The notes under the pieces were generated by a model that saw only the letters and a program-made list of their open reading frames with translations, was not told where the DNA came from and did not search any database. From a virus (taxonomy: Duplodnaviria > Caudoviricetes), in IMG/VR virus record IMGVR_UViG_3300032030_000005, positions 64,001 to 128,000 of that record: a stretch of DNA of 64,000 nucleotides. One strand, 5' to 3'. Below, piece by piece: positions 2,131-47,747 of this stretch (position 1 is the first letter of the stretch; each line of letters starts with the position of its first letter). A program made the translations under genes and the position numbers.

Positions 2131-3090
2131 ATGAAAATCGATTATGAAAACCATAAGATAACAGTTTTAGTTGACGGAAAAGACTTTGATTACAAAGTTC
2201 ATAACTTTTTAAATGGCTCTTGCTATTTATATAATAAAATAGTAGAAGCAACCTTAATAATCGACATCAGAGATGATTATAAGGAAAACAATGATTGTCG
2301 CTTCTTTGGATTAAAAAAAGCATTTAGTAATTGTGAAAATTTAAAAACAGTTAATATATTAATTAGAAATGTTGACGGTCTTTTTAATTTTAATCCTGAA
2401 GCTAATATAATTGAAAAAGCTAAATGTTTTCAACATGCTTTCAATGTTGAAAAAATACTAGTTGTGTTAGAAAATACTTTTAAAGAAAGTATTAATTATC
2501 ATGAATTAACACGCAACTATATAACAACAAAAAATGATCGAAAAGTAATAGGTTTATTAAATTTCTTAAAATTATTAACAGAGAGCCTTATTGTACCATA
2601 CAATATGTATGATGGACGTTTATTAATAGATGATCTATCAATAGATGAGAATAATTTTTGGATGAATGATATATATGTAACAATAAAGAGGACCATACAG
2701 GGATCATTTAATCCAAAAGCATCTGATAATACTCGTGGTGCAAAGTTATTTAAGTACATTAGTAATTTAGAAACAGACGACGACCCAGTTAGTCTTAATA
2801 TTAGAAATGTAGAGACTAATGAAGAATTTGTTTTATTTGAATACATACCAACATTAAATAAAAGATCGTTTTTAAAATGCAAAGAGTCAATTTTGGAAAA
2901 TAATTATTTTCCAAAATTAAACGATAATTATAAGCATAATAATCAAGAATATGTTTATTATGATGTTATAAATTTTATTACTAATGAACTTAACCTTAGT
3001 AAAGAAAAAGCTATTTATAAGAAAAATACGTTAACGTTACAGTTAGATGCAACAACATATGCATTACTATTACTTAACATTAATTTATAA
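2131..3090 (+). CDS. Hypothetical protein carrying the shared C-terminal tag (LQLDATTYALLLLNINL)
   Basis: 319-aa ORF, GAGGT RBS, followed by a terminator. Confidence 0.75.
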   Translation: MKIDYENHKITVLVDGKDFDYKVHNFLNGSCYLYNKIVEATLIIDIRDDYKENNDCRFFGLKKAFSNCENLKTVNILIRNVDGLFNFNPEANIIEKAKCFQHAFNVEKILVVLENTFKESINYHELTRNYITTKNDRKVIGLLNFLKLLTESLIVPYNMYDGRLLIDDLSIDENNFWMNDIYVTIKRTIQGSFNPKASDNTRGAKLFKYISNLETDDDPVSLNIRNVETNEEFVLFEYIPTLNKRSFLKCKESILENNYFPKLNDNYKHNNQEYVYYDVINFITNELNLSKEKAIYKKNTLTLQLDATTYALLLLNINL

Positions 3091-3106
3091 TCCTCTTTTA
3101 AATACA

Positions 3107-3154
3107 TAAAAATATCCCTAAAGACTATAAATGTCTTTAGGGATATTTTTTTTT
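3107..3154. terminator. Bidirectional terminator
   Basis: 19-bp stem with A and T tails, between convergent genes. Confidence 0.85.
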
Positions 3155-3949
3155 TTAATTTAAACATTCACTATTTAAATTCGGAGGATGATTTGTCTGT
3201 CTTGACATGATGTTATAGTTCTTAGAACAATACTTCTTCTTAGAAATCTTAACACTTTCTTTAATTTTTGTATGATCCAGAGCTTGTTTGAATAAAGCTT
3301 TAAATTCTGACTCACCATAGTCTCTTACTGAGATACACATGCTTATAGGGTCTAACTCGTCACAACCCGGAAGAACTACTGATCTTGTGCTTTCACTAGA
3401 TTTTCCACAAATAGCACATAACCACATATGCCATTCTTTTATACTACATACACCCATAGTGTTACCAATCTTATTTAAGCACTTTTCACAATCAGTATCT
3501 ATTTCTGTTAAATTAAAACGGTTTAAATATTCATAACTAGTTCTAAAACCAGCAATAAATCCTAATTTCTTAATTTCACTACACCATTCATTAATCATAT
3601 AAGTAAGTGTAGATTTAGCCATATTTTCTCTTAAAGAAGTTTTTATATCATCAATTACATAATAACACGGACACTTAAAATTCTTATCTTTGATAACTTC
3701 TTTAAAAGCTTCAATTTCTTTTTTTGTTTCTTCAAGACTTTTTGCACGGCAGTTCCAATAACAACCTACTAGTAAATTAGCTTCAGTAGCCTTAGTATAA
3801 AATTCTTCAAACTTTTCATCTTTAATATCAGGGCCTTCACCAGCTCTAATAATTACAAATGAACATTTGCTTTCTGCTAATTTAGTAAAGTCAATATTGG
3901 CATTATCCTGAGATATATCGATGCCATAGAATAAGTCATTTAATAACAT
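3155..3949 (-). CDS. GH25 muramidase-like protein with a degenerate second catalytic motif
   Basis: Motifs GIDISQDN, FVIIRAGEG...KDEKFEEFY, VGCYW. The DxE position reads YYVIDD. Start is more likely ATG 3949 (GGGGGT RBS, late promoter 3984-3995) than 4006. Confidence 0.75.
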   Translation of the reverse strand: MLLNDLFYGIDISQDNANIDFTKLAESKCSFVIIRAGEGPDIKDEKFEEFYTKATEANLLVGCYWNCRAKSLEETKKEIEAFKEVIKDKNFKCPCYYVIDDIKTSLRENMAKSTLTYMINEWCSEIKKLGFIAGFRTSYEYLNRFNLTEIDTDCEKCLNKIGNTMGVCSIKEWHMWLCAICGKSSESTRSVVLPGCDELDPISMCISVRDYGESEFKALFKQALDHTKIKESVKISKKKYCSKNYNIMSRQTNHPPNLNSECLN

Positions 3950-4069
3950 AAAATCAACCCCCAGTTGACAAAATATTTTAGAATAACTTATTGTTGACGG
4001 CAACAAAAAAAGAAAAAAAGTGAGATTCTAAATGGAAGAATCTCACTTTTCATTACGCATTATTTACCA

Positions 4070-4351
4070 TCAAAAGATATAAGTAAATAATGCATAAAAA
4101 CCGAATGTCGCTAAAACGATTAGCGACATTACACTGACGGTAACGAACTCAATAGCAATTAAATTTGCCATTTTGTTAATTACCTTATACAGGTCATTGG
4201 TGAACTGTGATTTACCATGATATACTACCAATATATAAATGATGTACAGTATTAGTAGTATCAGTCCCGTTATGGTCATTGCCCCAAGACCATAACTCCA
4301 TATGTTATCGGGACTTAAGATTTTGAAAAATATTTCAAACTTATTGTTCAT
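4070..4351 (-). CDS. Small two-TM membrane protein (early)
   Basis: Two hydrophobic segments, AGGAGG RBS, early promoter 4391-4407 and its own terminator 4016-4050. Confidence 0.7.
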   Translation of the reverse strand: MNNKFEIFFKILSPDNIWSYGLGAMTITGLILLILYIIYILVVYHGKSQFTNDLYKVINKMANLIAIEFVTVSVMSLIVLATFGFYALFTYIF

Positions 4352-4456
4352 AAGAAGTCCTCCTTTTTTAATTTAATATGTTTCCTATGACATCATTATA
4401 ATATATATCTAAAATTTGAGTAAAAACGGTTAAAGGGATTTCTCCCTTTAACCTAA

Positions 4457-4783
4457 TTATTTATAGTTTTCATCTATATTGTTATTTATACTATTCATAT
4501 AATCTAATTTCTTTTCATTTATTCTAGTCTTTTCTTCTTCTTTAGTTTCAAAGAATGACTTACATAAATAACCAAGAATTGTTAATAATAAAGTTCTAAT
4601 AACTTCTATGCTTACGTCTGTAAGTGGATTTGGATCTGCATTTTTAATAAGAGCAATCGTTGCTAAAATGTAAGACCATGTTACCCATACAATAGAAATA
4701 TATAGAATGAATACTACTAATCTTTTAGTAAATGTTGCTTTCTTAGTATTAAGCTTTTTACTAGTGTTTATTGGTTTACACAT
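4457..4783 (-). CDS. Holin-like two-TM membrane protein
   Basis: Basic N-terminus, two TM segments, GYLCKSFFETKEE tail. Late promoter; lies near the GH25 gene. Confidence 0.55.
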   Translation of the reverse strand: MCKPINTSKKLNTKKATFTKRLVVFILYISIVWVTWSYILATIALIKNADPNPLTDVSIEVIRTLLLTILGYLCKSFFETKEEEKTRINEKKLDYMNSINNNIDENYK

Positions 4784-4943
4784 AACAACACTTCCCTTCT
4801 ATATAATATAATTAAATGTTGATATAAAACTGTAATAAATGTATGATCCGAATATATATTATAATTGTGTAAGAATGAAACATATAATGAAATCACCTAA
4901 ACAAGTGATGTAAATAAACTGTTGCCATAAAGGAGGTTATACT

Positions 4944-5408
4944 ATGGCAGATAAAGACAAAGAAATGATAAAGATCATTTTCTCAAAAAATGAAGAGCGT
5001 GGAATGATCCGTGCTTCTCTGTATAATAATGAGAAAAATGAAAAAGAAAACATTTCCATTTTTATTAAAAACGGAAATATCTTCGATAATGATGAAAATG
5101 AACCATTTGTTATTGAAGAAGTGGTACCTATACCATTTAAAAATAGGAATACAAATTCAGAATGTCGTCATTTTATAATTATTGGCGACAATGGAGTTAT
5201 AACTGCCAATGAAGCATATTGCAATGAAACATTGGAACAGATGGCTGCAAGAATGTTTGTTGAAAACCATCGTTCGGTAAAAGGATCGTCACATTTAATA
5301 ATGATCCAGATAAAAGATTCATACTATCATATACCGGAAATTCGCTTTGATAGCACGGATTATCATTCTGGCTATCCAGCGATTCTTTCAATGACTGTTA
5401 AAGACTAA
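4944..5408 (+). CDS. Hypothetical early protein
   Basis: AAGGAGG RBS, early promoter 4853-4869, terminator 5431-5467. Confidence 0.75.
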   Translation: MADKDKEMIKIIFSKNEERGMIRASLYNNEKNEKENISIFIKNGNIFDNDENEPFVIEEVVPIPFKNRNTNSECRHFIIIGDNGVITANEAYCNETLEQMAARMFVENHRSVKGSSHLIMIQIKDSYYHIPEIRFDSTDYHSGYPAILSMTVKD

Positions 5409-5509
5409 TAATCTTTAACAGTTACTCTAGAAAAACAGTTCCTTACCATCGGAGCTGTTTTTTTTTTCGATTAAAAACTATAAATTATTAACATAAAAGG
5501 AGTGATAAT

Positions 5510-6217
5510 ATGTTAAGTGCTACTAGAATTATACAACGTCTTGAAAAGAAACTCGGTTATAAATTTATGGATCTAGAAATATCACATGAAGAAATAATTG
5601 ATAATCTTAAAGATGAAACTCTTAGAACCTTCTCTAAGTATTTTCCATATCAGGAATTATGTGTAGTAGATCCGGAAAATAAAGTAGATGGTATAGATAA
5701 TAGATTCTATATTGGAAGTCAAAATGAATGTGTTGGTATTAATAGACTTATTGGTGGTAGTTTACTTGGTGCTAACTATGTAACTAATATGTTACATCCG
5801 GTTAGTATGAGTATGTTACTTGGTGATCCTATTAGTAGACAATGTAACATTGATTTATTATCATTTACATCAAACCCTATAACTTTTAAATATTTTGAGC
5901 CGGGTATGATTGAAATTTATCCTTATTATCATAATATAAAATCTTATATAATAGTAGCTAATGTAGTTCACCCTGATCATTTTGGTACTATACCGATTAA
6001 TCTTGAAGATGAATTTATGGATTATGCATTAGCTGATACAAAAGATGCACTCTACACAATGAGATCTAGATTTGCTAATATACAATTACCATATGGCAAC
6101 ATAGAAATGTTCTTAGATCAATTACAAGGTGCTGAAGATAAGAAAGAACAGATTAAAGAAAAATGGAGAACTAATTCTCATAAGAGTTCTCATAGAAAGA
6201 AAATATTCATAGCATAA
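5510..6217 (+). CDS. Virion neck/head-completion protein (T4 gp13-like)
   Basis: N-terminal I..RLEKKLG...LE......I.....TLRTFSKYFP and C-terminal YALAD.K......RSRF patterns. Late promoter. Confidence 0.5.
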   Translation: MLSATRIIQRLEKKLGYKFMDLEISHEEIIDNLKDETLRTFSKYFPYQELCVVDPENKVDGIDNRFYIGSQNECVGINRLIGGSLLGANYVTNMLHPVSMSMLLGDPISRQCNIDLLSFTSNPITFKYFEPGMIEIYPYYHNIKSYIIVANVVHPDHFGTIPINLEDEFMDYALADTKDALYTMRSRFANIQLPYGNIEMFLDQLQGAEDKKEQIKEKWRTNSHKSSHRKKIFIA

Positions 6218-6228
6218 GAGGTGTTATT

Positions 6229-7263
6229 ATGATAAGTAGAGAAGAATATTTAAAGAAAGTAAGACAATCAAGTTTCTATCAAAATGCTAGTCTTATAGAA
6301 CGTAAAAGAATATTAGAAGATGCTAATAAACAGTATGATAGAAGATTAGAACGTGAAAAAGAAGAAAAAACCTTAAAAGAAGAAGTTTATGACTCTATTA
6401 ATAATTTAGAAATCACTGATGTATTTCAAAATTTTGAAGATAAATATGGTAAGGATAATACTACTGAACTAACTACATTTAAAGACTTACATCAGAAAGA
6501 TGCTTTTCCACCTCATGGAAAAGATAGAGCTAATTTATTTAAAGCTGTTCATGAAAGAGATAAAAATATTGGTGTAGAACATCAAGTATTTAAAAATGCT
6601 AATAAACAAAAAAGGATGTGCGAAGAAATGACATATGAAGATTTATTTTTAGAAGGTTATTATGATGCTTTAAATGAAACTAAAAAGGAAAAAGAGGAAG
6701 AAGAAAATTTTTTTAAAAAGCATAAAAAGAAGATTATTGCTGGTGCTATTGGGGCCGGAGCTATTGCTGGTGCTGCTGGTGCTATTCATCATGATAATAA
6801 AAAGAGTTTAGCAGTAGCTAATAAAGCAATTACAAATGCTAAAAAAGAAGGAACTATTGGTGTAGGATATTATGACACAGCACGTCATAAATCACATTTA
6901 ATAAATGATGACTCATCTAGAAAAGAAAAAATTAAAGTTGGTAGATTTATGCGTGCTAAAGATTATATAGAAAGAAAAAAATATGAAAGAACACCAAAAG
7001 ATCAATTTAGACAATCATACATTGATGAAATGGAAAAACGAGCTCATAATAAAGAATTAAACGATAAAATTATGAATAGATTAGGCGTAAAACATGAAGA
7101 TTATGATGAACTTGATGAGATATTCATGGAAGGTTATTATGATGCCATTAATGAAATGACTGAAATTGATAACTATGGTGATGAATATGATTATGATGAA
7201 TACAATGAATATGATGAATTATCTGATATAGATGAAGATGATATCAAACATTCATATAATTAA
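6229..7263 (+). CDS. Putative internal head (cargo) protein with two EGYYDA(L/I)NE tags
   Basis: Acidic tags flank a basic core that contains a Gly/Ala-rich hydrophobic segment. Acidic C-terminal tail. Confidence 0.6.
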   Translation: MISREEYLKKVRQSSFYQNASLIERKRILEDANKQYDRRLEREKEEKTLKEEVYDSINNLEITDVFQNFEDKYGKDNTTELTTFKDLHQKDAFPPHGKDRANLFKAVHERDKNIGVEHQVFKNANKQKRMCEEMTYEDLFLEGYYDALNETKKEKEEEENFFKKHKKKIIAGAIGAGAIAGAAGAIHHDNKKSLAVANKAITNAKKEGTIGVGYYDTARHKSHLINDDSSRKEKIKVGRFMRAKDYIERKKYERTPKDQFRQSYIDEMEKRAHNKELNDKIMNRLGVKHEDYDELDEIFMEGYYDAINEMTEIDNYGDEYDYDEYNEYDELSDIDEDDIKHSYN

Positions 7264-7276
7264 TAAATATAAATTT

Positions 7277-7311
7277 TCCCTAAAGGCTATATAGCCTTTA
7301 GGGATATTTTT
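7277..7311. terminator. Bidirectional terminator
   Basis: TCCCTAAAGGCTATATAGCCTTTAGGGA between convergent genes. Confidence 0.8.
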
Positions 7312-8081
7312 TAATTTATACAATACTTTTTAATAACAAGATTCTGTACTTTATAAACCTTATTAGAATTAAATGCTAATTTAATCATATTATCCTTAAA
7401 ATTATCTCCATATGCAACATCTGTAAATAGATTATCTATAAATACTTTAGTACACCAGAAATTACATTCTTTCATAGGATCATTTTCAATCATTAATTCT
7501 AATATATCTTCTGCTAATAAATTATATGTCTTAATACTTTCTATATTATCTGTAAAGAAATAAATTTGATTTAAATAGTCATTTGGAATAACTCCTTTAA
7601 GATTAATGTAAGCCTGATTCTTAGTATCTACATCGGCTACAATAGGGAATTCCTTAATATTATTAATAAAATAATTATATAATAAACTTTCCATATTATC
7701 TTCAATATTATTTACTAAGAAATTATAAATCATATGAATATAATGAATTTTAGTATCAAATAATAAAGCTTCACTAAAAGTTATTTTAAAATCAAAATGT
7801 TGTTCTATTGATGTTAAAATATTAGTAGCCATTTCATCCATAATCTGTTCAAGTTCTGGGATAAAGTCTTCATTATCTTTATACTTCTCATGTAAAAAGT
7901 TATATTTCTGAATTATATTTTCAAAGCAATCCATACTATTCTTTGGTATTTCTGTTTCATCGAATAATTGAATTATTTGCTGTTCTATATTATCTAAAGA
8001 TAATTCTGAAGAAAGATTACTTAATATATCTCTCTGATCATAATTACTTAAACTAATATCTTCATTTCTTTCTAACATCAT
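7311..8081 (-). CDS. Hypothetical acidic late protein
   Basis: 256-aa ORF, AAGGTGG RBS, late promoter 8113-8124. Confidence 0.75.
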   Translation of the reverse strand: MMLERNEDISLSNYDQRDILSNLSSELSLDNIEQQIIQLFDETEIPKNSMDCFENIIQKYNFLHEKYKDNEDFIPELEQIMDEMATNILTSIEQHFDFKITFSEALLFDTKIHYIHMIYNFLVNNIEDNMESLLYNYFINNIKEFPIVADVDTKNQAYINLKGVIPNDYLNQIYFFTDNIESIKTYNLLAEDILELMIENDPMKECNFWCTKVFIDNLFTDVAYGDNFKDNMIKLAFNSNKVYKVQNLVIKKYCIN

Positions 8082-8214
8082 AATAGTGTTCCACCTTTCA
8101 AAGAATTAAATTTATTAAAATGTTGTTTTTAATATATTAAAAAATAAATATATATTATAGTTGTGTTAAATTTTAAATATTTAAAATTAACGAATAATTT
8201 TAAAGGGGTAAGAA

Positions 8215-8505
8215 ATGATGGAAAAAGAAACAGCATTAAAAGTTAAAAGAATCATGTGTGACATGGAGGAGTTACGCAAGTTTACGGATATGGTATATTA
8301 TATTAACGATAATTCACCATATGAAGTAACGATGACTCTTAAGACAAAACTTACTGAAGAAGCAAATTCTGAAGTAAAAGAGGAAACAATCAGTATGATT
8401 TATCCTCACTTTACAAACAATGAAACATATGAGATGCTAAAGAGTCTCAAAGATCATTGTAACGCTAGAATTAAGGAATTGGAGGAAATCTTAGAGAAAA
8501 TTTAG
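8215..8505 (+). CDS. Hypothetical early protein
   Basis: Early promoter 8149-8165 and an RBS. Confidence 0.7.
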   Translation: MMEKETALKVKRIMCDMEELRKFTDMVYYINDNSPYEVTMTLKTKLTEEANSEVKEETISMIYPHFTNNETYEMLKSLKDHCNARIKELEEILEKI

Positions 8506-8519
8506 AAAGGAAGGTAAAA

Positions 8520-8972
8520 ATGGTAATTATGATAATAGATCATAATAACATTAAAGATCTTCAAAATGGTTATGATTTTGAAGATCTTTTCATTGATGAT
8601 GAGGAAGATTATCAGTTACAGATAAATTTCTCTGAATTTGAAAAGAACGGTGTATCTAATAAACCATTAGCAATATTAGTTAAAAGATGCTATAACAGGC
8701 ATTTTACTATTAATGTAAAAATCGATGCAGAAACTACCTTGTATGTATTAAGAAAATACATGGACAAAACTGCATCAAGATTGATGTTCACTTTAAATTT
8801 AAATGACAAAAATTATAAATATACGATAGGAGATGAAACAGTGTATAATAAGTCTCATTTAAATTTAAATGAAGGATCTGAACTTATCTTAGATCCAAGG
8901 AAACATGTAATTAAAGTTCTTAATTTAAGTGAAGCTAACGAAGCTTTATTTAAATTAAATAGAACACTTTAA
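8520..8972 (+). CDS. Hypothetical protein carrying the shared C-terminal tag (LNLSEANEALFKLNRTL)
   Basis: GGAAGG RBS, terminator 8980-9011. Confidence 0.7.
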   Translation: MVIMIIDHNNIKDLQNGYDFEDLFIDDEEDYQLQINFSEFEKNGVSNKPLAILVKRCYNRHFTINVKIDAETTLYVLRKYMDKTASRLMFTLNLNDKNYKYTIGDETVYNKSHLNLNEGSELILDPRKHVIKVLNLSEANEALFKLNRTL

Positions 8973-9059
8973 TTAAATTAAAACTAAGAGATTATATAGT
9001 CTCTTAGTTTTTTTTTTGTAAATTTTTAATATAAAAATATAATTATATTAAAAAGGAGA

Positions 9060-9647
9060 GTGATTAAAATGGATGAAATCACATCAGTTGCATTACTACC
9101 TGATATAAAAGTTATTAAAGAAAAATTAAAAAATTTAGATAAAAAAGATATATATGATGTAGATAATTTATTATGGGATATTACAAAAGATCAATTATTA
9201 ACTTTTAAGAATATAGCTAAAGATGAAGAACAATATAATCAATTTATGAATGATAATATTGATTTAAAAGCTATGTTTACAGTTGATGCTTTGGCTGCAA
9301 TAACAAATGAAAAATTAGAAGAATATAGTCAATGTGAAGAATTTAAAGATACAGATTTAAGATTAAAGACAACTATATATATTGATAAAGATTTGAATAG
9401 ACATATAGATTTTACTACAGAAACTATAGAAGAAGTAGATTTAGATGATGACGATGGATATCCACCATTTAATGATATGATAGAAAAATGTATAACAAAT
9501 TTTTGTAGAGAAGCTTTATCTGAAGAATTAAGTGAAGAAGAACTTGAAGAATTTATAAATGATAGACTTGAAGATTATAAAGAAGAACCTTATTCACCAG
9601 AATGGTTAGAAGGTTTTATAGCCGGTTATTTTGAAAAAGAAGATTAA
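9060..9647 (+). CDS. Acidic hypothetical protein ending in EWLEGFIAGYFEKED
   Basis: AAGGAG RBS. The C-terminus loosely resembles the EGYYDA tag. Confidence 0.7.
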   Translation: MIKMDEITSVALLPDIKVIKEKLKNLDKKDIYDVDNLLWDITKDQLLTFKNIAKDEEQYNQFMNDNIDLKAMFTVDALAAITNEKLEEYSQCEEFKDTDLRLKTTIYIDKDLNRHIDFTTETIEEVDLDDDDGYPPFNDMIEKCITNFCREALSEELSEEELEEFINDRLEDYKEEPYSPEWLEGFIAGYFEKED

Positions 9648-9653
9648 AAAAGG

Positions 9654-9686
9654 TCCGTAAAGAGTTAAGACTCTTTACGGATTTTT
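9654..9686. terminator. Bidirectional terminator overlapping the end of 9665-11002
   Basis: TCCGTAAAGAGT-TAAG-ACTCTTTACGGA. Confidence 0.8.
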
Positions 9687-11002
9687 AAATCTTGCATGAA
9701 TTTATCAAGTTCTTTTTCAGATAAACTATCTTCACCCATTAAATCATTAATCTTATTAACTATTCCCATATCAGCATAACATACAACTGTATATGTGGTA
9801 TTACTCATAGGATCTTTAGTTTTAAGAATGAATTCTTTTTCGTCAAAAGAATATACTTCAGGATCAACAAGCTTACCATTTATATATAAATCTATATCAA
9901 ATACTTTAGACATTTTAATCTTATATTTATTTAATAAATCACAAACTTTATGAACATTTGTTGGTAATACGGACTTAAGATCTAATTCATCATATTCAAC
10001 ATTAACTTCTGGTAGGAAGTTCCTTCTAAATAAAAGATTCCTTCTATTCTTGGTGTATGGAATATAATCTTCATTCATTATTAATGAGAATCTATACATA
10101 CCATCATCATAATCTTCTGGTTGTTGTAATTTAATATTCTTAAATCTTTCCATATTATCTAATTCCATAATAAATGTAGCCGGTGTCCATAATTCAGCAG
10201 TAATACTATATTCAATTTGTGAATTTTGAATAACGTTCTGTCTAAGATTTCTGTTATTATTAGACATATCAGGATAATTAACTAAAATATTAGCTGGATA
10301 CTTAAACATAAAACGATCATTACCAGTTGACAAATCTTTAGTTAAATAAATACCATTATATGAATACTGCATCATAAAATCTTCCATACGTTCCTTATCA
10401 GCTGGATCTGACAAGTCATAATTTAATCTATTTGCAATATTACTAATAATAAATGGAGGAACTTGTGTCTGTAAGAATATCTTATTTAAAAAGAAATATC
10501 CATTAGTCTGAAAGTTCTGATCTATATATGATAAACAATTCCAACCCTGTAATTCAGAATTAACTCTAATACCAATTCTAAACTGTATTTTAGTTCTCTT
10601 AAATGAATTAAATATTCTTATACCAGTAGATTCATCTTCAAATATTAGATTATAATTCTTTTTAAGTTTCTTTAAATATATCCATGAAGTATCTGTAAAT
10701 AATAGTGGTAATTGACCCATATAACCTTCTGATAAATCAAATTGAGGTTGCACAAATAAATATGGTCTCTTTTTAGGTTCAAAATAATCTTTTTGAATAG
10801 CACTTGCTGCCATTGTAGTAGATATATATGTTTCTTTAAAATATTTATCTGGAAATTTAGATTTAAAATATTCAGTCATATAACTTGTTACAGAACCTAT
10901 AATAGATGATAAGGCATTAGAAGAACTACAAACAGAAATAGTACTATATGTTTGATTTACTATTTGCTCTTCTCTACCCGGATCTCCAAATGTAATATTC
11001 AC
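9665..11002 (-). CDS. Virion structural protein, possibly tail completion/terminator
   Basis: 445 aa, GTG start, late promoter 11028-11039. Function inferred from context only. Confidence 0.5.
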   Translation of the reverse strand: MNITFGDPGREEQIVNQTYSTISVCSSSNALSSIIGSVTSYMTEYFKSKFPDKYFKETYISTTMAASAIQKDYFEPKKRPYLFVQPQFDLSEGYMGQLPLLFTDTSWIYLKKLKKNYNLIFEDESTGIRIFNSFKRTKIQFRIGIRVNSELQGWNCLSYIDQNFQTNGYFFLNKIFLQTQVPPFIISNIANRLNYDLSDPADKERMEDFMMQYSYNGIYLTKDLSTGNDRFMFKYPANILVNYPDMSNNNRNLRQNVIQNSQIEYSITAELWTPATFIMELDNMERFKNIKLQQPEDYDDGMYRFSLIMNEDYIPYTKNRRNLLFRRNFLPEVNVEYDELDLKSVLPTNVHKVCDLLNKYKIKMSKVFDIDLYINGKLVDPEVYSFDEKEFILKTKDPMSNTTYTVVCYADMGIVNKINDLMGEDSLSEKELDKFMQDLKIRKES

Positions 11003-11113
11003 AATAACACTTCCTTTCTTTAAATAATAAATGGATGTTAAATTTATATAATTTATTATTAAATATTTAATTTAACAAATAAATAATTAATACTTTAATA
11101 AGTAGGTGATATT

Positions 11114-11578
11114 ATGGAAAATGAAGAAAATAAAACAGAAGTATTAGATGTAACATTAGTTGATCCATATGAACATGTAGATGTAATAAGTGATACATTC
11201 TATGAAGGTAAAGAAAAAGCAACTGTATCAGATATAGAATATATGTGTAATTTTATAGCTAATAATATTGGATGTGAATATTGTCCATTAAAAGTTAGTA
11301 ATAAAATTTGTCCATTTGCTTTATTACTTAAAAAGTATGGTACATATACAGAAATCAATAAAGAAATTTTAAAATGGTTATCTGAAAATCCACCAACAAG
11401 TTATTTAATGGATATTAGAGAGAAAATGCCAAATGTTGTAATTGATTCAAATTATAATATTCCTAATTTCTGTGTTAAAGATATCTATGGTAATGATTGC
11501 TGCGAATGCTGTAAATCAGATAATGTATTTGATAAAGCAGATATGTACTGTAGGAAATGCTGGAGACAACCAATGTAA
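11114..11578 (+). CDS. Cys-rich hypothetical protein
   Basis: CEYCPL...CPF and FC...CCECC...CRKCWRQPM. Late-type promoter 11074-11085. Confidence 0.7.
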   Translation: MENEENKTEVLDVTLVDPYEHVDVISDTFYEGKEKATVSDIEYMCNFIANNIGCEYCPLKVSNKICPFALLLKKYGTYTEINKEILKWLSENPPTSYLMDIREKMPNVVIDSNYNIPNFCVKDIYGNDCCECCKSDNVFDKADMYCRKCWRQPM

Positions 11579-11582
11579 AAAT

Positions 11583-11622
11583 AATAAACCCTTAAGAGAT
11601 ATACTCTTAAGGGTTTATTTTT
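11583..11622. terminator. Bidirectional terminator
   Basis: 16-bp stem between convergent genes. Confidence 0.8.
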
Positions 11623-12304: not shown

Positions 12305-12320
12305 TTATATCATCCTCTCG

Positions 12321-12842: not shown

Positions 12843-12938
12843 AATATTTTCACCACCGTATAATTTTAAGTTATTTATATATTTATATATTATATATATG
12901 TTAAATTTAAATATTATATTTAAAGGAGGTTAATATCA

Positions 12939-14216: not shown

Positions 14217-14266
14217 AATTTAAATTTTGGTGAAAACATAAAATTACAAGGAGGGAAAAGAAAATT

Positions 14267-15523: not shown

Positions 15524-15587
15524 ATTAATAATAAAGACTCTTATATCTTAGTATATAAGAGTCTTTAATTTTTTAGGAGGAAGTTTT

Positions 15588-15914
15588 ATGTTTTTTAAAA
15601 AGAAAGAAAAGATTAAGTATTATTATTTAACTAAAGCTTGGTATGATAATAGTAGTGGTGGATTTTGTGCTACAAGCCTCTTTATAGATTCTAACAAAGC
15701 TGTTGAATGGAAGAATAATAGCTTTAGAAAAGGAGCTAAGGCTGTATGTATTGAATTCTATGAATTATATTCAGATAAGAAATCACAGGATTTAAAATAT
15801 CAGGGTTCTGAGACTATGGATCTTACTGAATGGACAGAAATGATGGAAAGAACTGAAATAGAATTAACCGCAGCTCAGAAGGCTGGCTTGAATCATTTTA
15901 AGCCTTTAAAATAA
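15588..15914 (+). CDS. Hypothetical protein
   Basis: AGGAGG RBS, 108 aa. Confidence 0.7.
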   Translation: MFFKKKEKIKYYYLTKAWYDNSSGGFCATSLFIDSNKAVEWKNNSFRKGAKAVCIEFYELYSDKKSQDLKYQGSETMDLTEWTEMMERTEIELTAAQKAGLNHFKPLK

Positions 15915-15966
15915 TTATATATTATAATATAGTCTATAAGACAATATTTATATTAGGAGGAATAAC

Positions 15967-18342
15967 ATGTCTAAGAAAATTAATGATGATTATAATGAGG
16001 AATCCATAACACAATTGGATTATCCAATTAATATTCAGAAAAAACCAACTATGTATATTGGTGATATAAGAACTATTGGATGCACTCATTTAGTTAGAGA
16101 GGTTTTAGACAATAGCGTTGATGAATGTCTCAATGGATATGGTAATTGTATTACAATTAATATATCTAATAAAAATGGCTCTTGCTCAGTAGAAGATGAA
16201 GGTCGTGGAATACCACCTAAAGCAATTGAGAAAGCTTTCTGTAACTTACACGCATCAGGTAAGTTTAATAACAAAGAGTATTCTGCCTCTGCAGGTACTA
16301 ATGGTGTTGGCACAACAGCCGTTAACGCTCTGTCAAAGTCATTTATAGTTGAATCTGTAAGAGAACATACTGCGTATGTACAGAAGTTCTCAGATGGTTT
16401 AGCGATAACTAAATTAACAAAGACAGGTACTAAAAAGAAAGAATCGGGTACAATAGTATACTTTGAACCAAATAAGAAGTTTATGAAGGAAGTAAACTTT
16501 GATATTGATGTTCTTAAGGATGAATTATCTTCTAAAGTATATGTACTTAAAGGTATTAAATTAGTGCTTAATAATGAAGATACTAAAGAAAAATTTGAGT
16601 ATCTTTCAAAAAATGGCTTAAGTGATTATATTAAGGCATGTAACAAAGAGCCTATATCATCTTCTATTAAACTTAATAAAAATATTCCATTTAAATATAT
16701 TGATGAAGATGATAATGAAATTGATTTAACATATAATGTCGATATGGAATTTTCTTATGATAAGAAATCTCATACAGATATTATATCATTTTGTAACTCT
16801 TTATGTATGAAAGATGGTGGTATTCAGGAAGTAGCATTTAGAACCACTTTAACAAAATTCTTCAAGAAGTATATTAAAGAAAATAATTTATTAACAAAGA
16901 AAGATGAAAAGCTTCTTGATAAGATAAGTGGTGAACATGTTTGTGATGGTTTAGTAGCTATCATTTCTATTAAGCATCCTATGCCGGAATTCCAAAATCA
17001 GACAAAACAGCAGCTTCGTAACGCTGAACTTAATAAAATATCTACATATGTAAACGAAGCTCTCGAAGAATTTGCAGCAGAAAATCCTAAAGAAGTTAAG
17101 AATATCTGCAATAAGATAATTTTAAGTGTAAAAGCCTTTGAAGCTGCGAAGAATGCCAGAGAAAGTGTTCAGAAGAAGGGTGAAAATCAGTTCTCTATAG
17201 TAAGTGATTTAAGTAAGTTAGCTAACTGTATATCTAAGGATATTTCTGTAAATGAAATATTTATTACTGAAGGACGTTCAGCATCTGGAACCGCTAAAGA
17301 CGCTAGAGATAAATATACTCAGGCTATATATGGATTAAGAGGTAAAATGCTTAATACTATAAATACTGAAGCCCCTGCAGTATTAGCAAACAAGGAATGT
17401 GCAGATTTAGCATATATACTAACTGGCCAGAAAAATGCCATAGACGATAAATTTGATATATCATTATTAAAATATGGTAAGATAATTATGTTATGTGATG
17501 CCGACTTTGATGGTCTTCATATTGTAATATTAGGTACTACTTATATATTTGAACATATGAAGCCTATTATTGAAGAAGGACATTTTTATGTGGCAATTCC
17601 ACCACTATATTCAATTATAGAGAAAGGAAAAAAGAGATATTTTGTAGATCAGGAAGAATATGATAATTATATCTATAAGAAAATTCTTGAATCATATTCA
17701 TTCGTTGATGAAAATGAAAAGTCATTAAATAAGAAAATAAAAGTAATCTTTAATAAATATGATATGTTATCATCACATATAAATCTTTACTCATTAACAA
17801 ATATTGGTCTAAGTAAACAGTTCTTACTCGATTTATTAGACTATTGTGTTGATGAAGGAGATATAGACGAAAAGACTATTAAGACATTTATTAAAGATTG
17901 TGATAATATAAAATTTAATAAAGATAAAAAGATATATAATGGCTTCTATGGAGACGATTATGTATCTTTTGAATTTGATAAGTTAATTAAATTCACTGAA
18001 GAAACTGTAGAATATATCGAAAATAATAAAATACCTATTGGCGATATATACTATGGTGACAAAAACAGCAATGAATATTCAGCATTTACAATTAGTGAAT
18101 ACATAGAATTAATCTATAATGTAACACCAAAGAGCCGTACAAGGTTAAAGGGTCTTGGAGAAATGGATGCTGATGAATTAAAAGAAACAACTCTTGATGT
18201 TGAGAAGCGTAATCTCTATCGAGTAACAATTGAAGATGTTGAGAGAGCTAAGGAAGCTATGAATAATTTCATGGATAGCAATTCTAAGTATGTAGCATTC
18301 AGAAAAGCTATACTTTTAAATAGTAAGAGAGTGGAGGATTAA
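15967..18342 (+). CDS. gyrB: Type IIA topoisomerase (gyrase) B subunit
   Basis: Motifs KKPTMYIG, EVLDNSVDE, DEGRGIP, LHASGKF, GTNGVG, EGRSASG, LRGKMLN, DADFDG, KGLGEM. Confidence 0.95.
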   Translation: MSKKINDDYNEESITQLDYPINIQKKPTMYIGDIRTIGCTHLVREVLDNSVDECLNGYGNCITINISNKNGSCSVEDEGRGIPPKAIEKAFCNLHASGKFNNKEYSASAGTNGVGTTAVNALSKSFIVESVREHTAYVQKFSDGLAITKLTKTGTKKKESGTIVYFEPNKKFMKEVNFDIDVLKDELSSKVYVLKGIKLVLNNEDTKEKFEYLSKNGLSDYIKACNKEPISSSIKLNKNIPFKYIDEDDNEIDLTYNVDMEFSYDKKSHTDIISFCNSLCMKDGGIQEVAFRTTLTKFFKKYIKENNLLTKKDEKLLDKISGEHVCDGLVAIISIKHPMPEFQNQTKQQLRNAELNKISTYVNEALEEFAAENPKEVKNICNKIILSVKAFEAAKNARESVQKKGENQFSIVSDLSKLANCISKDISVNEIFITEGRSASGTAKDARDKYTQAIYGLRGKMLNTINTEAPAVLANKECADLAYILTGQKNAIDDKFDISLLKYGKIIMLCDADFDGLHIVILGTTYIFEHMKPIIEEGHFYVAIPPLYSIIEKGKKRYFVDQEEYDNYIYKKILESYSFVDENEKSLNKKIKVIFNKYDMLSSHINLYSLTNIGLSKQFLLDLLDYCVDEGDIDEKTIKTFIKDCDNIKFNKDKKIYNGFYGDDYVSFEFDKLIKFTEETVEYIENNKIPIGDIYYGDKNSNEYSAFTISEYIELIYNVTPKSRTRLKGLGEMDADELKETTLDVEKRNLYRVTIEDVERAKEAMNNFMDSNSKYVAFRKAILLNSKRVED

Positions 18343-18346
18343 TATA

Positions 18347-18652
18347 ATGTCAGTAATAGATATAAATATAACAGATCTTCAAGAAGACTATATGGTAAAA
18401 TACATGCGTAGTGTTCTTGAAGAGCGTTCTATACCAGATCTTAGAGATGGTCTTAAACCTATACAGCGTTATTGTATTTGGGATGCCTTTAATGAAGGAC
18501 ATACATATGATAAGCCACATGTTAAGTGTGCATTAGGTGTAGGATCTATTATTGGTAAATATAGTCCTCATGGCGATCAGTCAGCGTATATGGCAATGAT
18601 GAGATTAGCTCAGAATTTCTCATTAAATATACCATTAATTAATCCACATGGT
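18347..18652 (+). CDS. gyrA: Gyrase A subunit, exon 1 (102 codons)
   Basis: RSIPDLRDGLKPIQR, GKYSPHGDQS, ...INPHG. Similarity stops at GGT (18652). Confidence 0.92.
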
Positions 18653-19802
18653 AAAATATAAATTAAAAGAGTTATAATTAATAATAAAGAAGTGATTAAA
18701 ATAAGAAGTTATGAAGAAGAAATGAATTATTATTTAAATAATTTTGTAAGCATAAAAGATGTTTGCAAAAAATTTCATATAGATAATAAATCATTTTCAA
18801 AATATTTAAAATTAAATAATATCGAAATTAGAGAAACTAGACGAAAATATATAGTAAACGAAGAATATTTTGATATAATAGACACTGAAGATAAAGCTTA
18901 TTGGTTGGGATTTCTAATGGGCGATGGTTGCATAAAATCAAATAATAATCAAATACAATTAGCATTAAGCAATAAAGACGAAGATCATGTGATTAAATTT
19001 AAAAATTGTCTTAATTCAAACTATCCAATAATATATGAAGAAACTAAATTTAATAGTAAATCATCTATATTTAGAATATATAGCAAAAAAATGTATAATA
19101 GACTTAATGAGTTAAATTTCACAACACACAAATCGATGAATGAGAAATTTATACATTCAAATTTTGATTATGCATTTATTAGAGGTATATTTGATGCTGA
19201 TGGTTGGATTACTAAAAGCAAAAATCACCTTAAAGAATTTGGAATTTGTAGTTCTTTAAATTTATGTAATGAAATAAAAGATTATCTGATTTCTAAAGGT
19301 ATTAATAAAGATAAAATAAGTATTTCTAAAAACAATACTAAAAAAGATAATCAATTATATAGAATAAGAATTTTTAATTCCAAAGATTTAAAAACTGTAT
19401 ATGATTTATTATATCAAAATAAAAATTGTATTAATTTAGAACGTAAAAAAATAAAATTTGAAGATATTTTAAAATAACTCTTTTAATTTTTGCCGTCTTA
19501 AATGAAACCAACAAGTATATTTAAGATTATGAGTGCTGAATTAAGCTGGGAGGGTGTAAAATCCTAGTCAGAGATCGAAGGCTTTATTTAAAAGTAAAGT
19601 CAGACGCAACGCATAGTAATTGAAACTATAATTGAGATATTATAGAATATAATATTACCAAGAGGCAGCACTAACGGTTGGTACATTATGCAGAATAATG
19701 TGTTAAAAAGATATGCTATACTGGATTAGAATTGACTAATCGATGAAAATGAACGAAAGTTCCAGAGTATGAGATAAAAAACTCATAGATAATAACAATT
19801 AG
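18653..19802 (+). ncRNA. Group I intron in gyrA (1150 nt)
   Basis: Removal restores HG|NCGNIGGDSPAAMRY (compare GNFGSIDGDSAAAMRY). The 5' exon ends in U and the intron ends in G. P1: GGU|AAAA pairs with UUUUGCC (19488-19494). P3: AGUGCUG (19532) / CAGCACU (19666). P7: GCAUA (19611) / UAUGC (19712) after AAGA. Confidence 0.9.
18692..19477 (+). CDS. Intron-encoded double-motif LAGLIDADG homing endonuclease
   Basis: Motifs WLGFLMGDGCI and FIRGIFDADGWI. Lies inside the gyrA intron. Confidence 0.9.
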   Translation: MIKIRSYEEEMNYYLNNFVSIKDVCKKFHIDNKSFSKYLKLNNIEIRETRRKYIVNEEYFDIIDTEDKAYWLGFLMGDGCIKSNNNQIQLALSNKDEDHVIKFKNCLNSNYPIIYEETKFNSKSSIFRIYSKKMYNRLNELNFTTHKSMNEKFIHSNFDYAFIRGIFDADGWITKSKNHLKEFGICSSLNLCNEIKDYLISKGINKDKISISKNNTKKDNQLYRIRIFNSKDLKTVYDLLYQNKNCINLERKKIKFEDILK

Positions 19803-21989
19803 AATTGTGGAAACATAGGTGGTGATTCACCTGCTGCCATGAGGTATGTTGAATACAGACTTTCAAAGTTTGGTCAATCTTTATGTACTGATATAAATAA
19901 AAATGCTGTGGATTTCACAGATAATTATACAGTAACATTAAAAGAACCTACTGTATTACCAGCTAAAGTTTGTAATTTATTAATCAATGGTTCACTTGGT
20001 ATTGCTTGTGGATTTATAACCAGTATTCCACCCCATAATATTAATGATGTATGCAATGCTACTATAAAATTGGTTAAAGATCCTAATACACATTTAGATT
20101 ATTTCGCAAAGCATCTTAGGCCAGACTTTCCTACCGGTGGTATTATATGTAATACTAGTGAATTAACTAATGCATATAAAACTGGAACAGGAAATATAAA
20201 GATAAGATCTAAGGTAGAAATTGTAACTAAGAAAAATGGTTCATCAATTATTAAGGTAAAACAGATACCATATTTAGTTACAATAGGTCCTAGAATTGTA
20301 CCTGGAGCAACTACAACTGATGGCGGTCTTGTAAACAGTATTGTCGATAAAATTAAAGCAAATGTAATTGAAGGAATTAGTGATATTCAGGATCATTCAG
20401 ATAAAAATGATATCGAAATTGATATTCATGTAAAGAAAGACTATGATCCGAATGTCATTTTAGCTCAGTTATATAAATATACTAAGCTTGAAAGTTCATA
20501 TAAGATTCAGCTTGTATGTTTAAATAATGGTTCTTTTGATGTTTATAACATTAAGAGAATTCTTGAAGAGTTCTTAGATTTTAGACGAGATACTATTAGA
20601 AGAACAATAATCTTTGATATTAATAAATTTCAGCGTAGAATTCATATTCTTGAAGGCTTAATTCTTGCTTTATCAAATATCGATGATGTTGTTAAAATTA
20701 TTAGAGCATCCGCTGATACTAAGATAGCTGCTTCTAAGTTAAAGAAGAAACTTCCTTCATTAACAACAGTTCAAGTAGATTATATACTTGACATGAAATT
20801 ATCTACATTAACTGGCTTAGAAATCGATAAGCTTAAAAATGAAAGAGATGATAAGCTTAACAAGGTTAATGAATTCATTGAAGACCTTAAGCCAGAAAAT
20901 ATTGATAAGAGAATTATTGAAGAACAGGAAGAGTATAAGAAGACATATGGTACTCCTATTAAAACAGAGTATATGGATATAGATACTAACATCACAATTG
21001 AAGATACTATTGAAAAAGAAGATTGTGTTGTCATTCTATCTAAGGACAGTTATGTAAAAAGACTGTCACCTAATACGTTCAAGACACAGAACAGAAATAC
21101 ACAAGGTAATAATTTGTCTATATCTGTTAAAGATATCTTTACAACAAACACTAAAGACCATTTAATGTGTTTTACTAATACTGGAAGAGTCTTTGATATA
21201 AAGGTTTATCAGATACCAGAAAGTAATTTAAAATCAAAAGGAACTAAATTACCTATTAATCTTAAGAAGGATGAAAAAGTAGTTAAGATTCTTTGTTTAA
21301 GTGATGAACAACTTAACAAAGAAGATTCTTATCTGATATTTGTTACTAAGAATGGTATTTGTAAGAAAACTAATATTGAAGACTTTAATAATATTAATAG
21401 TGCCGGATTAATAGCTATTAAGCTTAATGAAGGTGATAAGTTAGTATTTACAGGTCTTATAGATACAGAGAAAGATATTCAGGATATTATCATAGCTTCA
21501 AATACTGGTAATACAGTACGATATAATCATGAAGAATTCAAGCCTATGGGCAGAGTTACAATGGGCCTTACAGCTATGTATTTACCAGAGGACGAATATA
21601 TAGCAAGTGCTTGTATTATAGATAGTCTTAATGATAAAGTATTCTTTGTTACCAGTCAAGGATTAGGTAAGACAACTCTTATAACCGATATGGTTAAAAA
21701 GAAGAATAACGGTAAAATAGCAACAATCAATGATGGTTTCCCACGTCTTAAGAGAACATCAAATATTAAAGGACGTATAGGAATAGAACTTAAAGATAAT
21801 GATAGCTTATTAGATATTTTACCAATCCATGAAGATGATGAGATAAAAGACTTAATAATTACTACATGTAATAAAGTCTTGACAATAAGTACAAGTGAAT
21901 TCTTAAAGCCTTTAAAGCGAACAACATGTGGAAAGAAGCTTATTAATTTAGCTGAAGAAGACCATATCGTTAATGTAGCTTTAAGATAA
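19803..21989 (+). CDS. gyrA: Gyrase A subunit, exon 2 (spliced product about 830 aa)
   Basis: Catalytic AAMRY, EPTVLPA, LLINGSLGIACG, PDFPTGG, C-terminal pinwheel repeats. In frame from 19803. Confidence 0.92.
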   Translation, partial: NCGNIGGDSPAAMRYVEYRLSKFGQSLCTDINKNAVDFTDNYTVTLKEPTVLPAKVCNLLINGSLGIACGFITSIPPHNINDVCNATIKLVKDPNTHLDYFAKHLRPDFPTGGIICNTSELTNAYKTGTGNIKIRSKVEIVTKKNGSSIIKVKQIPYLVTIGPRIVPGATTTDGGLVNSIVDKIKANVIEGISDIQDHSDKNDIEIDIHVKKDYDPNVILAQLYKYTKLESSYKIQLVCLNNGSFDVYNIKRILEEFLDFRRDTIRRTIIFDINKFQRRIHILEGLILALSNIDDVVKIIRASADTKIAASKLKKKLPSLTTVQVDYILDMKLSTLTGLEIDKLKNERDDKLNKVNEFIEDLKPENIDKRIIEEQEEYKKTYGTPIKTEYMDIDTNITIEDTIEKEDCVVILSKDSYVKRLSPNTFKTQNRNTQGNNLSISVKDIFTTNTKDHLMCFTNTGRVFDIKVYQIPESNLKSKGTKLPINLKKDEKVVKILCLSDEQLNKEDSYLIFVTKNGICKKTNIEDFNNINSAGLIAIKLNEGDKLVFTGLIDTEKDIQDIIIASNTGNTVRYNHEEFKPMGRVTMGLTAMYLPEDEYIASACIIDSLNDKVFFVTSQGLGKTTLITDMVKKKNNGKIATINDGFPRLKRTSNIKGRIGIELKDNDSLLDILPIHEDDEIKDLIITTCNKVLTISTSEFLKPLKRTTCGKKLINLAEEDHIVNVALR

Positions 21990-21996
21990 AAATATT

Positions 21997-22032
21997 TACC
22001 CTAAAGAGATAATTCTCTTTAGGGTATTTTTA
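21997..22032 (+). terminator. Terminator after gyrA
   Basis: TACCCTAAAGAGA-TAAT-TCTCTTTAGGGTA plus a T run. Confidence 0.8.
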
Positions 22033-22047
22033 TAAGGAGCTTTTATT

Positions 22048-22653
22048 ATGAAAAAGTGTTATGATAAAAAAGTATTAAAAGAATTATTAAAAAATTTTAA
22101 AAACTCTAAAAATTTTAATACAATAGGTATTACTCCAGATGGAGTTTATAATCATTGCTATAAGTTTAATATTAAAGACGATTATTTATATTTATCATAT
22201 GATAAATGTGCATCATATAATAAGCGTGGTAATGAACATCTTTCTGTAATAGATAACTTTGAAAATGTAAAGTTTCTATATAAAGATAATAAAATATATG
22301 CAACTAATATTCTGACTTTTATGGATTTAATAAATTTCATAGGTAGATATAGACGATGTATTGTAAAAAATAGTTATGAAATTATTAATGATTTTATGAA
22401 ATCGAATGATTATAAGTCTTTATTATATATAAATAATAAGAAAACTAAGTGTACAAAACCGAACTATAGAACTGATTTTTCATTAATATTACATTCTGCT
22501 GAATTTAATAATATATTTAATATATTAAATGCAAATAATACAATTGATAATAATGAAGATGAATTTTACTATGATATTTATAAAAATGAATTTCATATTA
22601 ATATTAATAATGAACAGAATAGAGCTTTATTAGAAGTTTATAATAATTTATAA
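22048..22653 (+). CDS. Hypothetical protein carrying the shared C-terminal tag (ININNEQNRALLEVYNNL)
   Basis: AAGGAG RBS, 201 aa. Confidence 0.7.
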   Translation: MKKCYDKKVLKELLKNFKNSKNFNTIGITPDGVYNHCYKFNIKDDYLYLSYDKCASYNKRGNEHLSVIDNFENVKFLYKDNKIYATNILTFMDLINFIGRYRRCIVKNSYEIINDFMKSNDYKSLLYINNKKTKCTKPNYRTDFSLILHSAEFNNIFNILNANNTIDNNEDEFYYDIYKNEFHININNEQNRALLEVYNNL

Positions 22654-22722
22654 ATACATATTATATTTAGGAGATATATTATTTGTATCTCCTAATTTTT
22701 TATTAATAAAGGAGTAAAGAAA

Positions 22723-23421
22723 ATGGAAAATATAAATAACCATACAAGTATAATTAAAAGTATTAAATTTTTTAAATATGAAAGACCCCTTAAAGTGAGC
22801 TTTCTTGATTTAATAAATAATAATGATGAACATTATACTTTAACCGTCAATTGTAATAAAGCAAACGACTATATTACAAACGATAGTTATCAGTTTGAAA
22901 GTGGTAGTTTTCATGATGCTATTAAATATGATAAAGATACAAAAACTGTATACATAAAAAATAGTCCATCGTCTATGAGACATATTTTCTATGAAATTTT
23001 TGTTAATATTATTAAAGTGACCGCTTATAAAGACTTTAAACCTAATAGATTTTATAACGGTAGAAAATATAAAAATAATCAGACATCTGAAGAATTATTA
23101 AAAGAGTCATTATATAAAGATTATTTAAACTTTTTAGATAATATGTATATTAATATAAAAATACAAAATGTTAAAAATAATGAAATTATTGATAATATAA
23201 AAATGACTTATTATGATTCTTATTATTTGGCTAAACGACAGGCTACAACAAACTATAATACTTTATTATTTAGAAACTTAATAAAGTATTATGATCTAAA
23301 ATCATCTAAGAATGATGTAAGATTGAATTGGATAAAATTAGATTTAACTTATTTTAGTATAACATTGCCAGTAAATGATGTTGCTTATGCTAAAGTTAAA
23401 TTAAATACTTCAACAACATAA
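22723..23421 (+). CDS. Hypothetical protein carrying the shared C-terminal tag (TLPVNDVAYAKVKLNTSTT)
   Basis: AAGGAG RBS, 232 aa. Confidence 0.7.
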   Translation: MENINNHTSIIKSIKFFKYERPLKVSFLDLINNNDEHYTLTVNCNKANDYITNDSYQFESGSFHDAIKYDKDTKTVYIKNSPSSMRHIFYEIFVNIIKVTAYKDFKPNRFYNGRKYKNNQTSEELLKESLYKDYLNFLDNMYINIKIQNVKNNEIIDNIKMTYYDSYYLAKRQATTNYNTLLFRNLIKYYDLKSSKNDVRLNWIKLDLTYFSITLPVNDVAYAKVKLNTSTT

Positions 23422-23431
23422 GGAGGTTTTA

Positions 23432-23788
23432 TTGTTGGATGGACATATTCAGCTATATAAGAATAATGATTTAACTTATGAGGAAAAGCATAAGTTAATT
23501 ATGAGAATTTATTCTCAAACACATAACGACATTTATTTATTAAATGAAGCTAATCCAGCTAATCAGCTTCAAGGAGGGATTCTTCATAACTATCTTTACA
23601 CATTACCAAAAAATTTAGAACATTTATCTGGTGCAACATTAAATGTTATATCTCAGAATGAGCTGCTTGATAATATGGTGGCTGTAGAGATATATTACAA
23701 CACGGTTGCAAATAATTCTATCTACTTGATAACACTTACCGAAAAAATGTATGCATTATTAAGTATAGATAATACATTGGAGGCATAA
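23432..23788 (+). CDS. Hypothetical protein carrying the shared C-terminal tag (LITLTEKMYALLSIDNTL)
   Basis: AAGGAGG RBS with a TTG start. Confidence 0.7.
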   Translation: MLDGHIQLYKNNDLTYEEKHKLIMRIYSQTHNDIYLLNEANPANQLQGGILHNYLYTLPKNLEHLSGATLNVISQNELLDNMVAVEIYYNTVANNSIYLITLTEKMYALLSIDNTLEA

Positions 23789-23794
23789 TATAAT

Positions 23795-24151
23795 ATGGTT
23801 AACGTCAAAGAAACTTTGCACCTGTGGGTTGATTGCCCTTTAGGTTTATACAAAGCATACTTTAGGCATGGAAAAACAAAGCAAGAAATACCATTTTCAA
23901 ATCAAATATGGGATGAAATATCTTGCATTATACATGAATTAGATAAATTAAATAAAACAATACCTGGTATTTATGATAAAATGACAGGACTTAAATTAGA
24001 TAATTACAATGGTAAATTGATTATTTATTGTAATGATGAGTTATATGCTTATCTGTCAATAAATAATCTTTTTGATAATGATTCAATGGAGGTACGTTAT
24101 GATAGAAATAATCTTTTATATCCTATTAGGAGTATTATTGATATGGATTGA
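23795..24151 (+). CDS. Hypothetical protein with a sub-terminal copy of the tag (IIYCNDELYAYLSINNLF)
   Basis: GGAGG RBS, 118 aa. Confidence 0.7.
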   Translation: MVNVKETLHLWVDCPLGLYKAYFRHGKTKQEIPFSNQIWDEISCIIHELDKLNKTIPGIYDKMTGLKLDNYNGKLIIYCNDELYAYLSINNLFDNDSMEVRYDRNNLLYPIRSIIDMD

Positions 24152-47587: not shown

Positions 47588-47747
47588 CAATAATCTTCAC
47601 ATAGAATCGCTAATTCTATGCAGTTCTCTTATGAACTTCTTCATATTTCTATGAATGTTGAGACTATATCTTCATTTTTATATAAAAATAAAAATGCTTT
47701 TTGTTTCCATTTAAGGGATTTTCACCCACCGCTTGGCCGTACTCTAC

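Follow-up and report, generated by a model that had tools for sequence, protein, structure and literature searches.

A recurrent C-terminal hairpin-helix module on dissimilar proteins of an uncultured jumbo phage

The 64-kb stretch analysed here (the window) comprises bases 64,001–128,000 of a single virus contig, IMG/VR record IMGVR_UViG_3300032030_000005, which represents an uncultured jumbo phage and measures 305,865 bp with 27% G+C. Six plus-strand genes in the window encode ORFan proteins with similar tails. These tails form the last part of a C-terminal mini-domain (hereafter the module), which is specific to the lineage and measures about 32–34 residues; it is a real feature at the protein level that is found on otherwise dissimilar bodies. 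In the following, "window" precedes positions in the 64-kb stretch and "genome" positions on the complete contig, and proteins are designated by these positions.

The first of the six genes (window 2131–3090) codes for a protein of 319 residues, in which the module occupies the last 34 codons (2986–3087). When this protein is left out of the 34-column profile described below, it scores 4.0 bits at its exact C-terminus, with 3 of about 267 non-members scoring higher. The product of the second gene (window 8520–8972, 150 residues, module 8868–8969), when left out, ranks first with 15.1 bits and an E-value of 3e-4, and the match lies at the exact C-terminus. The third gene (window 22048–22653, 201 residues, module 22549–22650) follows directly after exon 2 of gyrA; its product scores 7.0 bits at the C-terminus when left out, with two non-members above it, and 32 bits in the full profile. 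Next comes a gene for a protein of 232 residues (window 22723–23421) with a possible, weak module (23317–23418). Its tail matches the pattern by eye, and its best leave-one-out match is at an internal site and not at the C-terminus. The last two genes both encode proteins of 118 residues. In the first of these (window 23432–23788, module 23684–23785), the left-out protein ranks first, with 13.6 bits, an E-value of 1e-3 and a match two residues from the end. In the second (window 23795–24151), a possible module is sub-terminal (23975–24076) and is followed by 24 further residues; when left out, this protein scores 1.4 bits, with 15 non-members above it. The 2131 protein has no match in Pfam, PHROG or NCBIfam, and searches of the same collections gave nothing meaningful for any of the six.

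The six tails quoted in the original prediction, which was made from the DNA alone, are all present on translation of the open reading frames (ORFs). Five of them lie at the very end of the protein, while that of 23795 is sub-terminal, as had been said. The bodies are indeed dissimilar, with no similar pair among the six in BLASTP and phmmer comparisons, and the four genes from 22048 to 24151 stand in tandem as described, all 3' of gyrA exon 2. The proposal that the six share one tail is supported strongly for 8520 and 23432 and moderately for 2131 and 22048; it is not supported for 22723 and 23795, which are not recovered when whole paralog groups are left out.

The gene set used for statistical analysis consisted of about 286 genes, i.e. 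the six described above and 280 others, 235 of which are outside the window. An 18-column log-odds matrix was derived from the six tails and scored on the 280 other genes, with the cut-off set at the top 0.1% of internal windows of the proteins. Eleven C-terminal windows are above this cut-off, where 1.12 are expected. All eleven belong to genes outside the window (11 of 235, against 0.94 expected; Poisson probability 5e-9); when paralogs are collapsed to about five independent groups, the probability is about 0.003. The controls are flat: N-termini give no matches, reversed proteins 0–2, non-gene ORFs with matching composition 4 (2.1 expected) and real proteins with their last 30 residues shuffled 1.7. 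A crude end pattern has 20 matches in genes against 6.0 expected and 42 in non-gene ORFs against 34, and Asn-Leu is the most frequent terminal dipeptide (12 of 286 proteins, about 2 expected). The enrichment at C-termini over the AT-rich compositional background is thus present, as an approximately ten-fold excess. The members vary in the codons they use and in the DNA that follows (terminators, ribosome-binding sites, overlaps), so the module is a protein-level feature, and a DNA-level motif in the gene ends (promoter, terminator or ribosome-binding site) was rejected.

For the family as a whole, 19 candidates were aligned over their C-terminal 34 residues. The resulting 34-column profile, iterated over the proteins of the genome, converged at 18 proteins, none of them matched more than 24 residues from its end; the next-best match below these 18 is the product of a gene adjoining a member. 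At least 18 of the approximately 286 phage proteins therefore carry the module at their C-terminus, and four to six of these are inside the window. The members range from 100 to 385 residues in length and several are encoded in tandem arrays, located at genome 169593–171576, at genome 209562–210207 and, with four genes, after gyrA in the window.

Membership was cross-validated by leaving whole paralog groups out of the 34-column profile and scoring the left-out proteins against the approximately 267 non-members. Six proteins rank first, with matches at most two residues from the C-terminus: genome 39619 (19.2 bits, E-value 1.7e-5), genome 169593 (16.9 bits), genome 299894 (12.8 bits), genome 209562 (8.5 bits), window 8520 and window 23432. 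Five more are nearly recovered, with one to three non-members above them (window 2131, window 22048 and genome 150986, 170554 and 171085), and two are less clear, with five or six non-members above (genome 41795 and 7133). Window 22723, window 23795 and genome 257022, 209884, 170092 and 40693 are not recovered. When the profile is made from the six window tails only, leave-one-out recovers just the neighbours 23432 and 23795, each finding the other.

The module opens with a beta-strand that contains an aromatic residue. A polar turn leads into a second strand, after which come a capping residue, four further residues and an alanine; the unit closes with a helix whose last residues, L-x-x-[N/T/S]-L, stand next to the stop codon or close to it. 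In the 19-tail alignment, the cap is Asn, Ser, Thr or Asp in 18 of 19 sequences, the alanine is present in 17 of 19, a Leu, Ile or Val in the helix in 18 of 19, the Asn, Thr or Ser in 17 of 18 and the final leucine in 17 of 19. The spacing from the cap to the end is free of gaps. In most members the final conserved leucine is 0–4 residues from the stop codon, in three it is 8, 14 and 24 residues away. In the AlphaFold2 (AF2) model of the 8520 protein, calculated with the family alignment, the two strands (residues 121–125 and 130–134) and the helix (residues 138–149) have predicted local distance difference test (pLDDT) values of 72–83, and outside the module the pLDDT is below 60. The recurrent C-terminal unit originally described as a strand-helix tag of about 17 residues is thus real, while its length is about 32–34 residues and it is predicted to contain a hairpin before the helix.

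Comparison with known structures gave little. The 19-tail profile has no matches to sequences in the PDB at E-values up to 10. In a fold search with the low-confidence model the best Z-score, 5.3, was confined to the unreliable N-terminal part, and the ESM Atlas returned only a sub-threshold, ubiquitin-like lead (0.88). The suggestion that the tail might be half of a ribbon-helix-helix (RHH) did not stand. The RHH fold consists of one strand plus two helices, and pairing between chains would, as in that fold, be conceivable for a short strand that precedes a helix; however, the phage module is predicted to have two strands and a single, C-terminal helix, and no RHH family matches any of the six proteins at E-values up to 1.

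A longer-helix variant is observed at the ends of four tandem small genes (genome 210204–211948), with a strand, the sequence P-K/R-S/T and about 20 helical residues ending in E-N-L. These four genes possibly represent another branch of the module family. Together with genome 169011, 6040 and 299089, which also have a longer helix, they are candidate relatives by appearance. Helical ends resembling Asn-Leu also occur in window 410–1012, 31196–31942 and 47390–47590 (minus strand); all are below the profile and were not counted as members.

Upstream of the last 32 residues or so, the similarity is gone, in agreement with the prediction that one recurrent end is carried by variable bodies. Profiles of the 48 residues preceding the module (positions −80 to −33) recover no left-out member in cross-validation. 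A larger shared domain was considered and rejected, as these upstream profiles are blank, hhalign comparisons between subfamilies are blank and iteration within the genome, seeded with the C-terminal domain of genome 209562, 209884 and 39619, added no members. Three bodies exceed the 25-bit Pfam cut-off for DUF285 (PF03382), with 88.5 bits for genome 39619, 98 for genome 40693 and 50.1 for genome 41795, and a fourth, genome 7133, is just under it with 22.8 bits; DUF285 has no match in the six window proteins. Leucine-rich repeats (LRRs) of the BspA or DUF285 type are a classic variable binding scaffold, and LRRs normally bind proteins. The genome contains six such paralogs, arranged as two triplets (genome 5093–7981 and 39619–42766), four of which end in the module; genome 5093 and 6040 have deviant ends. 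Genome 209562 and 209884 are stand-alone proteins of about 100 residues (102 for the former) whose homology to genome 39619 is confined to the final 95 or so residues of the latter. Judged by these comparisons, the bodies to which the module is joined, sometimes together with about 60 preceding residues, are of two or more clearly distinct kinds.

The module is restricted to this lineage. The nearest relative found, the 265-kb IMG/VR contig G001, with a gyrA 69% identical to that of our phage, contains no match to the module profile, no DUF285, no 2131 protein and no member of the 169593 family. The profile scan of genome and relatives that had been proposed as a check thus yielded 18 proteins in the genome itself, none in this relative or in PAU, and in AR9 one weak, internal match and none at a C-terminus. 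Other jumbo phages that were examined contain multi-copy DUF285 proteins without the module end. In a collection of 5.8 billion proteins, the 8520 protein finds only itself and the 22723 protein only itself and a sister contig of 306,119 bp; an IMG/VR pattern search with the latter gave nothing, nor did megablast and tblastn searches of phage records with the proteins described here. An exhaustive HMMER search of 1.84 billion representatives with a 105-column profile of the C-terminal domain returned only the query itself and a spurious eukaryotic protein with zinc-finger repeats. No description of such a module was found in the literature. A 2212-bp Logan contig (SRR30832625) represents a sister lineage whose proteins are about 78% identical; it contains a syntenic ortholog of the 2131 gene, 78% identical at the protein level. 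In this pair, the last 10 residues are all identical, as are 26 of the last 31.

The members are suggestive of early-type genes. Annotated early promoters of AR9 share the core TATATTAT, followed by TG about five bases later. The corresponding pattern, TATATTAT-N4-6-TG, heads the co-directional units of 14 of the 19 members, compared with 110 of 286 genes (p = 0.0014, a value that ignores the clustering of members in arrays), and the AR9-like core heads arrays at genome 5093, 39619, 65571, 171576 and 209562. Because bare TATATTAT occurs at near chance frequency in this genome, the early assignment is suggestive only.

Of the readings considered for the module, we find it most likely that it is a portable protein-protein interaction end, serving either to dock on a shared partner or to associate members with each other, and give this reading a probability of roughly 45%. 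Tandem duplication, and fusion to bodies of different kinds, would have spread the module within the phage; it would then dock these variable bodies on one putative shared partner, from phage or host, or join the members together, while the bodies would supply target specificity early in infection. In its most specific form, about twenty proteins with varied target-binding bodies, both LRR solenoids and small ORFan domains, would plug into a single hub, as an early adaptor system, which we regard as distinctly unlikely as it stands. We are equally doubtful about the candidate hubs, namely a host protease, a chaperone or a replication or transcription machine, and about a counterpart of the poxvirus PRANC family having arisen here from an unrelated module.

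Several observations weigh against an interaction module. Six members of the alignment (window 22723 and 23795 and genome 257022, 209884, 170092 and 40693) are lost once their paralog groups are left out. The hhalign comparison of the 169593 family with the 209562 family finds nothing, tail included, and therefore homology of the module, rather than convergence, rests on the statistics of short profiles. Both full-length AF2 models are poor, with mean pLDDT values of 52.9 for the 8520 protein and 49.3 for the 169593 protein, so that the module may be autonomous or may simply close a larger domain. Most of the conserved positions are of a hydrophobic or structural kind, as in any small fold, and do not single out a binding surface. 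In the sole ortholog pair, the module is 84% identical against 78% overall, i.e. it is no better kept than the body.

In a second explanation, the proteins would form one very divergent superfamily of paralogs descended from one small protein or domain, the hairpin-helix would simply be the end that evolves slowest, the larger members would have gained N-terminal additions and there would be no common partner and no role as a tag. Tandem arrays like those described above are typical of duplication, the conserved positions are core-like and the homology of genome 209562 and 209884 to genome 39619 covers the whole of the last 95 or so residues, beyond the last 32. The alignments and both low-confidence models hint at another hairpin, located some 20 residues upstream. 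However, the cross-validated 48-residue upstream profiles recover no member, hhalign is blank between subfamilies, the proteins vary from 100 to 385 residues and some bodies are DUF285 solenoids, which are found elsewhere without this end. As an account of the complete family we judge this explanation to be possible, if somewhat unlikely; for the small ORFan members without LRRs, the low-confidence models would allow full-length descent from one fold.

The position of the tail at or near the C-terminus, its hydrophobic Asn-Leu end and the early-type units in which the genes are found are also what a turnover or sorting signal would show, for instance a degron by which a host or phage protease clears early proteins, or a localisation signal. 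This is improbable, since the distance from the final leucine to the end varies (0–4 residues of any kind, or 8, 14 and 24), a poor fit to recognition of a free carboxyl group, and the conserved unit is a 32-residue hairpin-helix predicted to be folded, not a short disordered peptide. Chance resemblance between generic capped, amphipathic end helices in a genome with 27% G+C, where Leu, Asn, Ile, Lys and Tyr abound, would be in line with the poor leave-one-out result of the six tails (the 23432/23795 pair only), the six of 19 members that fail cross-validation and the blank hhalign comparisons between subfamilies, but is very improbable given the flat controls beside a ten-fold C-terminal excess in genes outside the window, E-values in cross-validation that reach 1.7e-5 for matches at most two residues from the protein end and the lack of C-terminal matches in the equally AT-rich AR9 and in the relative G001.

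If the module is an interaction end, its closest parallel in organisation would be the poxvirus ankyrin-repeat proteins. These carry at their C-terminus the PRANC domain, a truncated F-box consisting of helices only, with host Skp1 as its binding partner. Both cases present a large DNA virus with a multi-gene family, in which the bodies, repetitive or otherwise, diverge and one module is kept at the extreme C-terminus. The phage module is, however, predicted to be strand-strand-helix and has no match to the F-box or PRANC families of Pfam at E-values up to 1; to our knowledge, the Skp1-cullin-F-box (SCF) ligase is absent from bacteria. When large eukaryotic viruses manipulate their hosts, they characteristically do so with multi-gene families in which the bodies evolve freely and a single docking end stays fixed; we know of no clear phage counterpart.

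Among phage and bacterial systems, the clamp-binding tails of T4 gp43, gp33 and gp55 and the bacterial beta-clamp motif QL[SD]LF consist of 5–10 disordered residues with aromatic pairs. The phage tails resemble them in being short, hydrophobic C-terminal ends on unrelated proteins of one phage, and four members adjoin replication genes, which may be compared with the docking of the T4 tails on one hub. They differ in that the module is about 32 residues long and predicted to be folded, and in that its end, A-x3-L-x2-[N/T/S]-L, contains neither glutamine nor paired aromatic residues. The adaptor SspB combines a substrate-binding body with a short, disordered ClpX-binding peptide at the C-terminus, after a flexible linker. 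The combination of a body and a C-terminal piece is similar, and a docking role for the module would be by analogy; SspB is a single protein and not a family of 18, and there is no sequence likeness. Finally, the bodies of genome 39619, 40693, 41795 and 7133 are like BspA-type LRR proteins, while the C-terminal module lies outside the DUF285 model and, in the other phages examined, was not seen on their DUF285 proteins.

About 6% of the genes of this jumbo phage, apparently early ones, thus share the module end, some of them combined with LRRs. Should all members share a single partner, its identity would reveal which host process is attacked first and give a role to a block of ORFans. If there is no single partner, the family would show how far tandem paralogs can diverge while keeping a 32-residue element. 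The value of either outcome is limited for now, with the phage uncultured and the module known from one lineage only.

The tandem of four window genes is preceded by the second exon of gyrA (19839–21989, plus strand), for which the gene table of the sister contig lists the Pfam domains DNA_topoisoIV and DNA_gyraseA_C. The complete gyrA gene (window 18347–21989) is interrupted by an insertion with an ORF matching LAGLIDADG_3 (18692–19477); the gyrA gene of AR9 is likewise annotated as a join of three pieces. The space after gyrA is a hot spot of accessory gene turnover. In the relative G001 the four genes downstream of gyrA are missing, and the corresponding space (locus L008, 12120–18233) contains an ORF of 71 residues and several minus-strand genes for Cys-rich, repeat-containing and endonuclease-like proteins. 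Between the 22048 and 22723 genes of the window, an 8-bp hairpin followed by a run of T (22669–22700) resembles a terminator. The early-promoter-like TATATTAT at 22675–22682 spans the stem and loop of this hairpin, so that terminator and promoter signals overlap.

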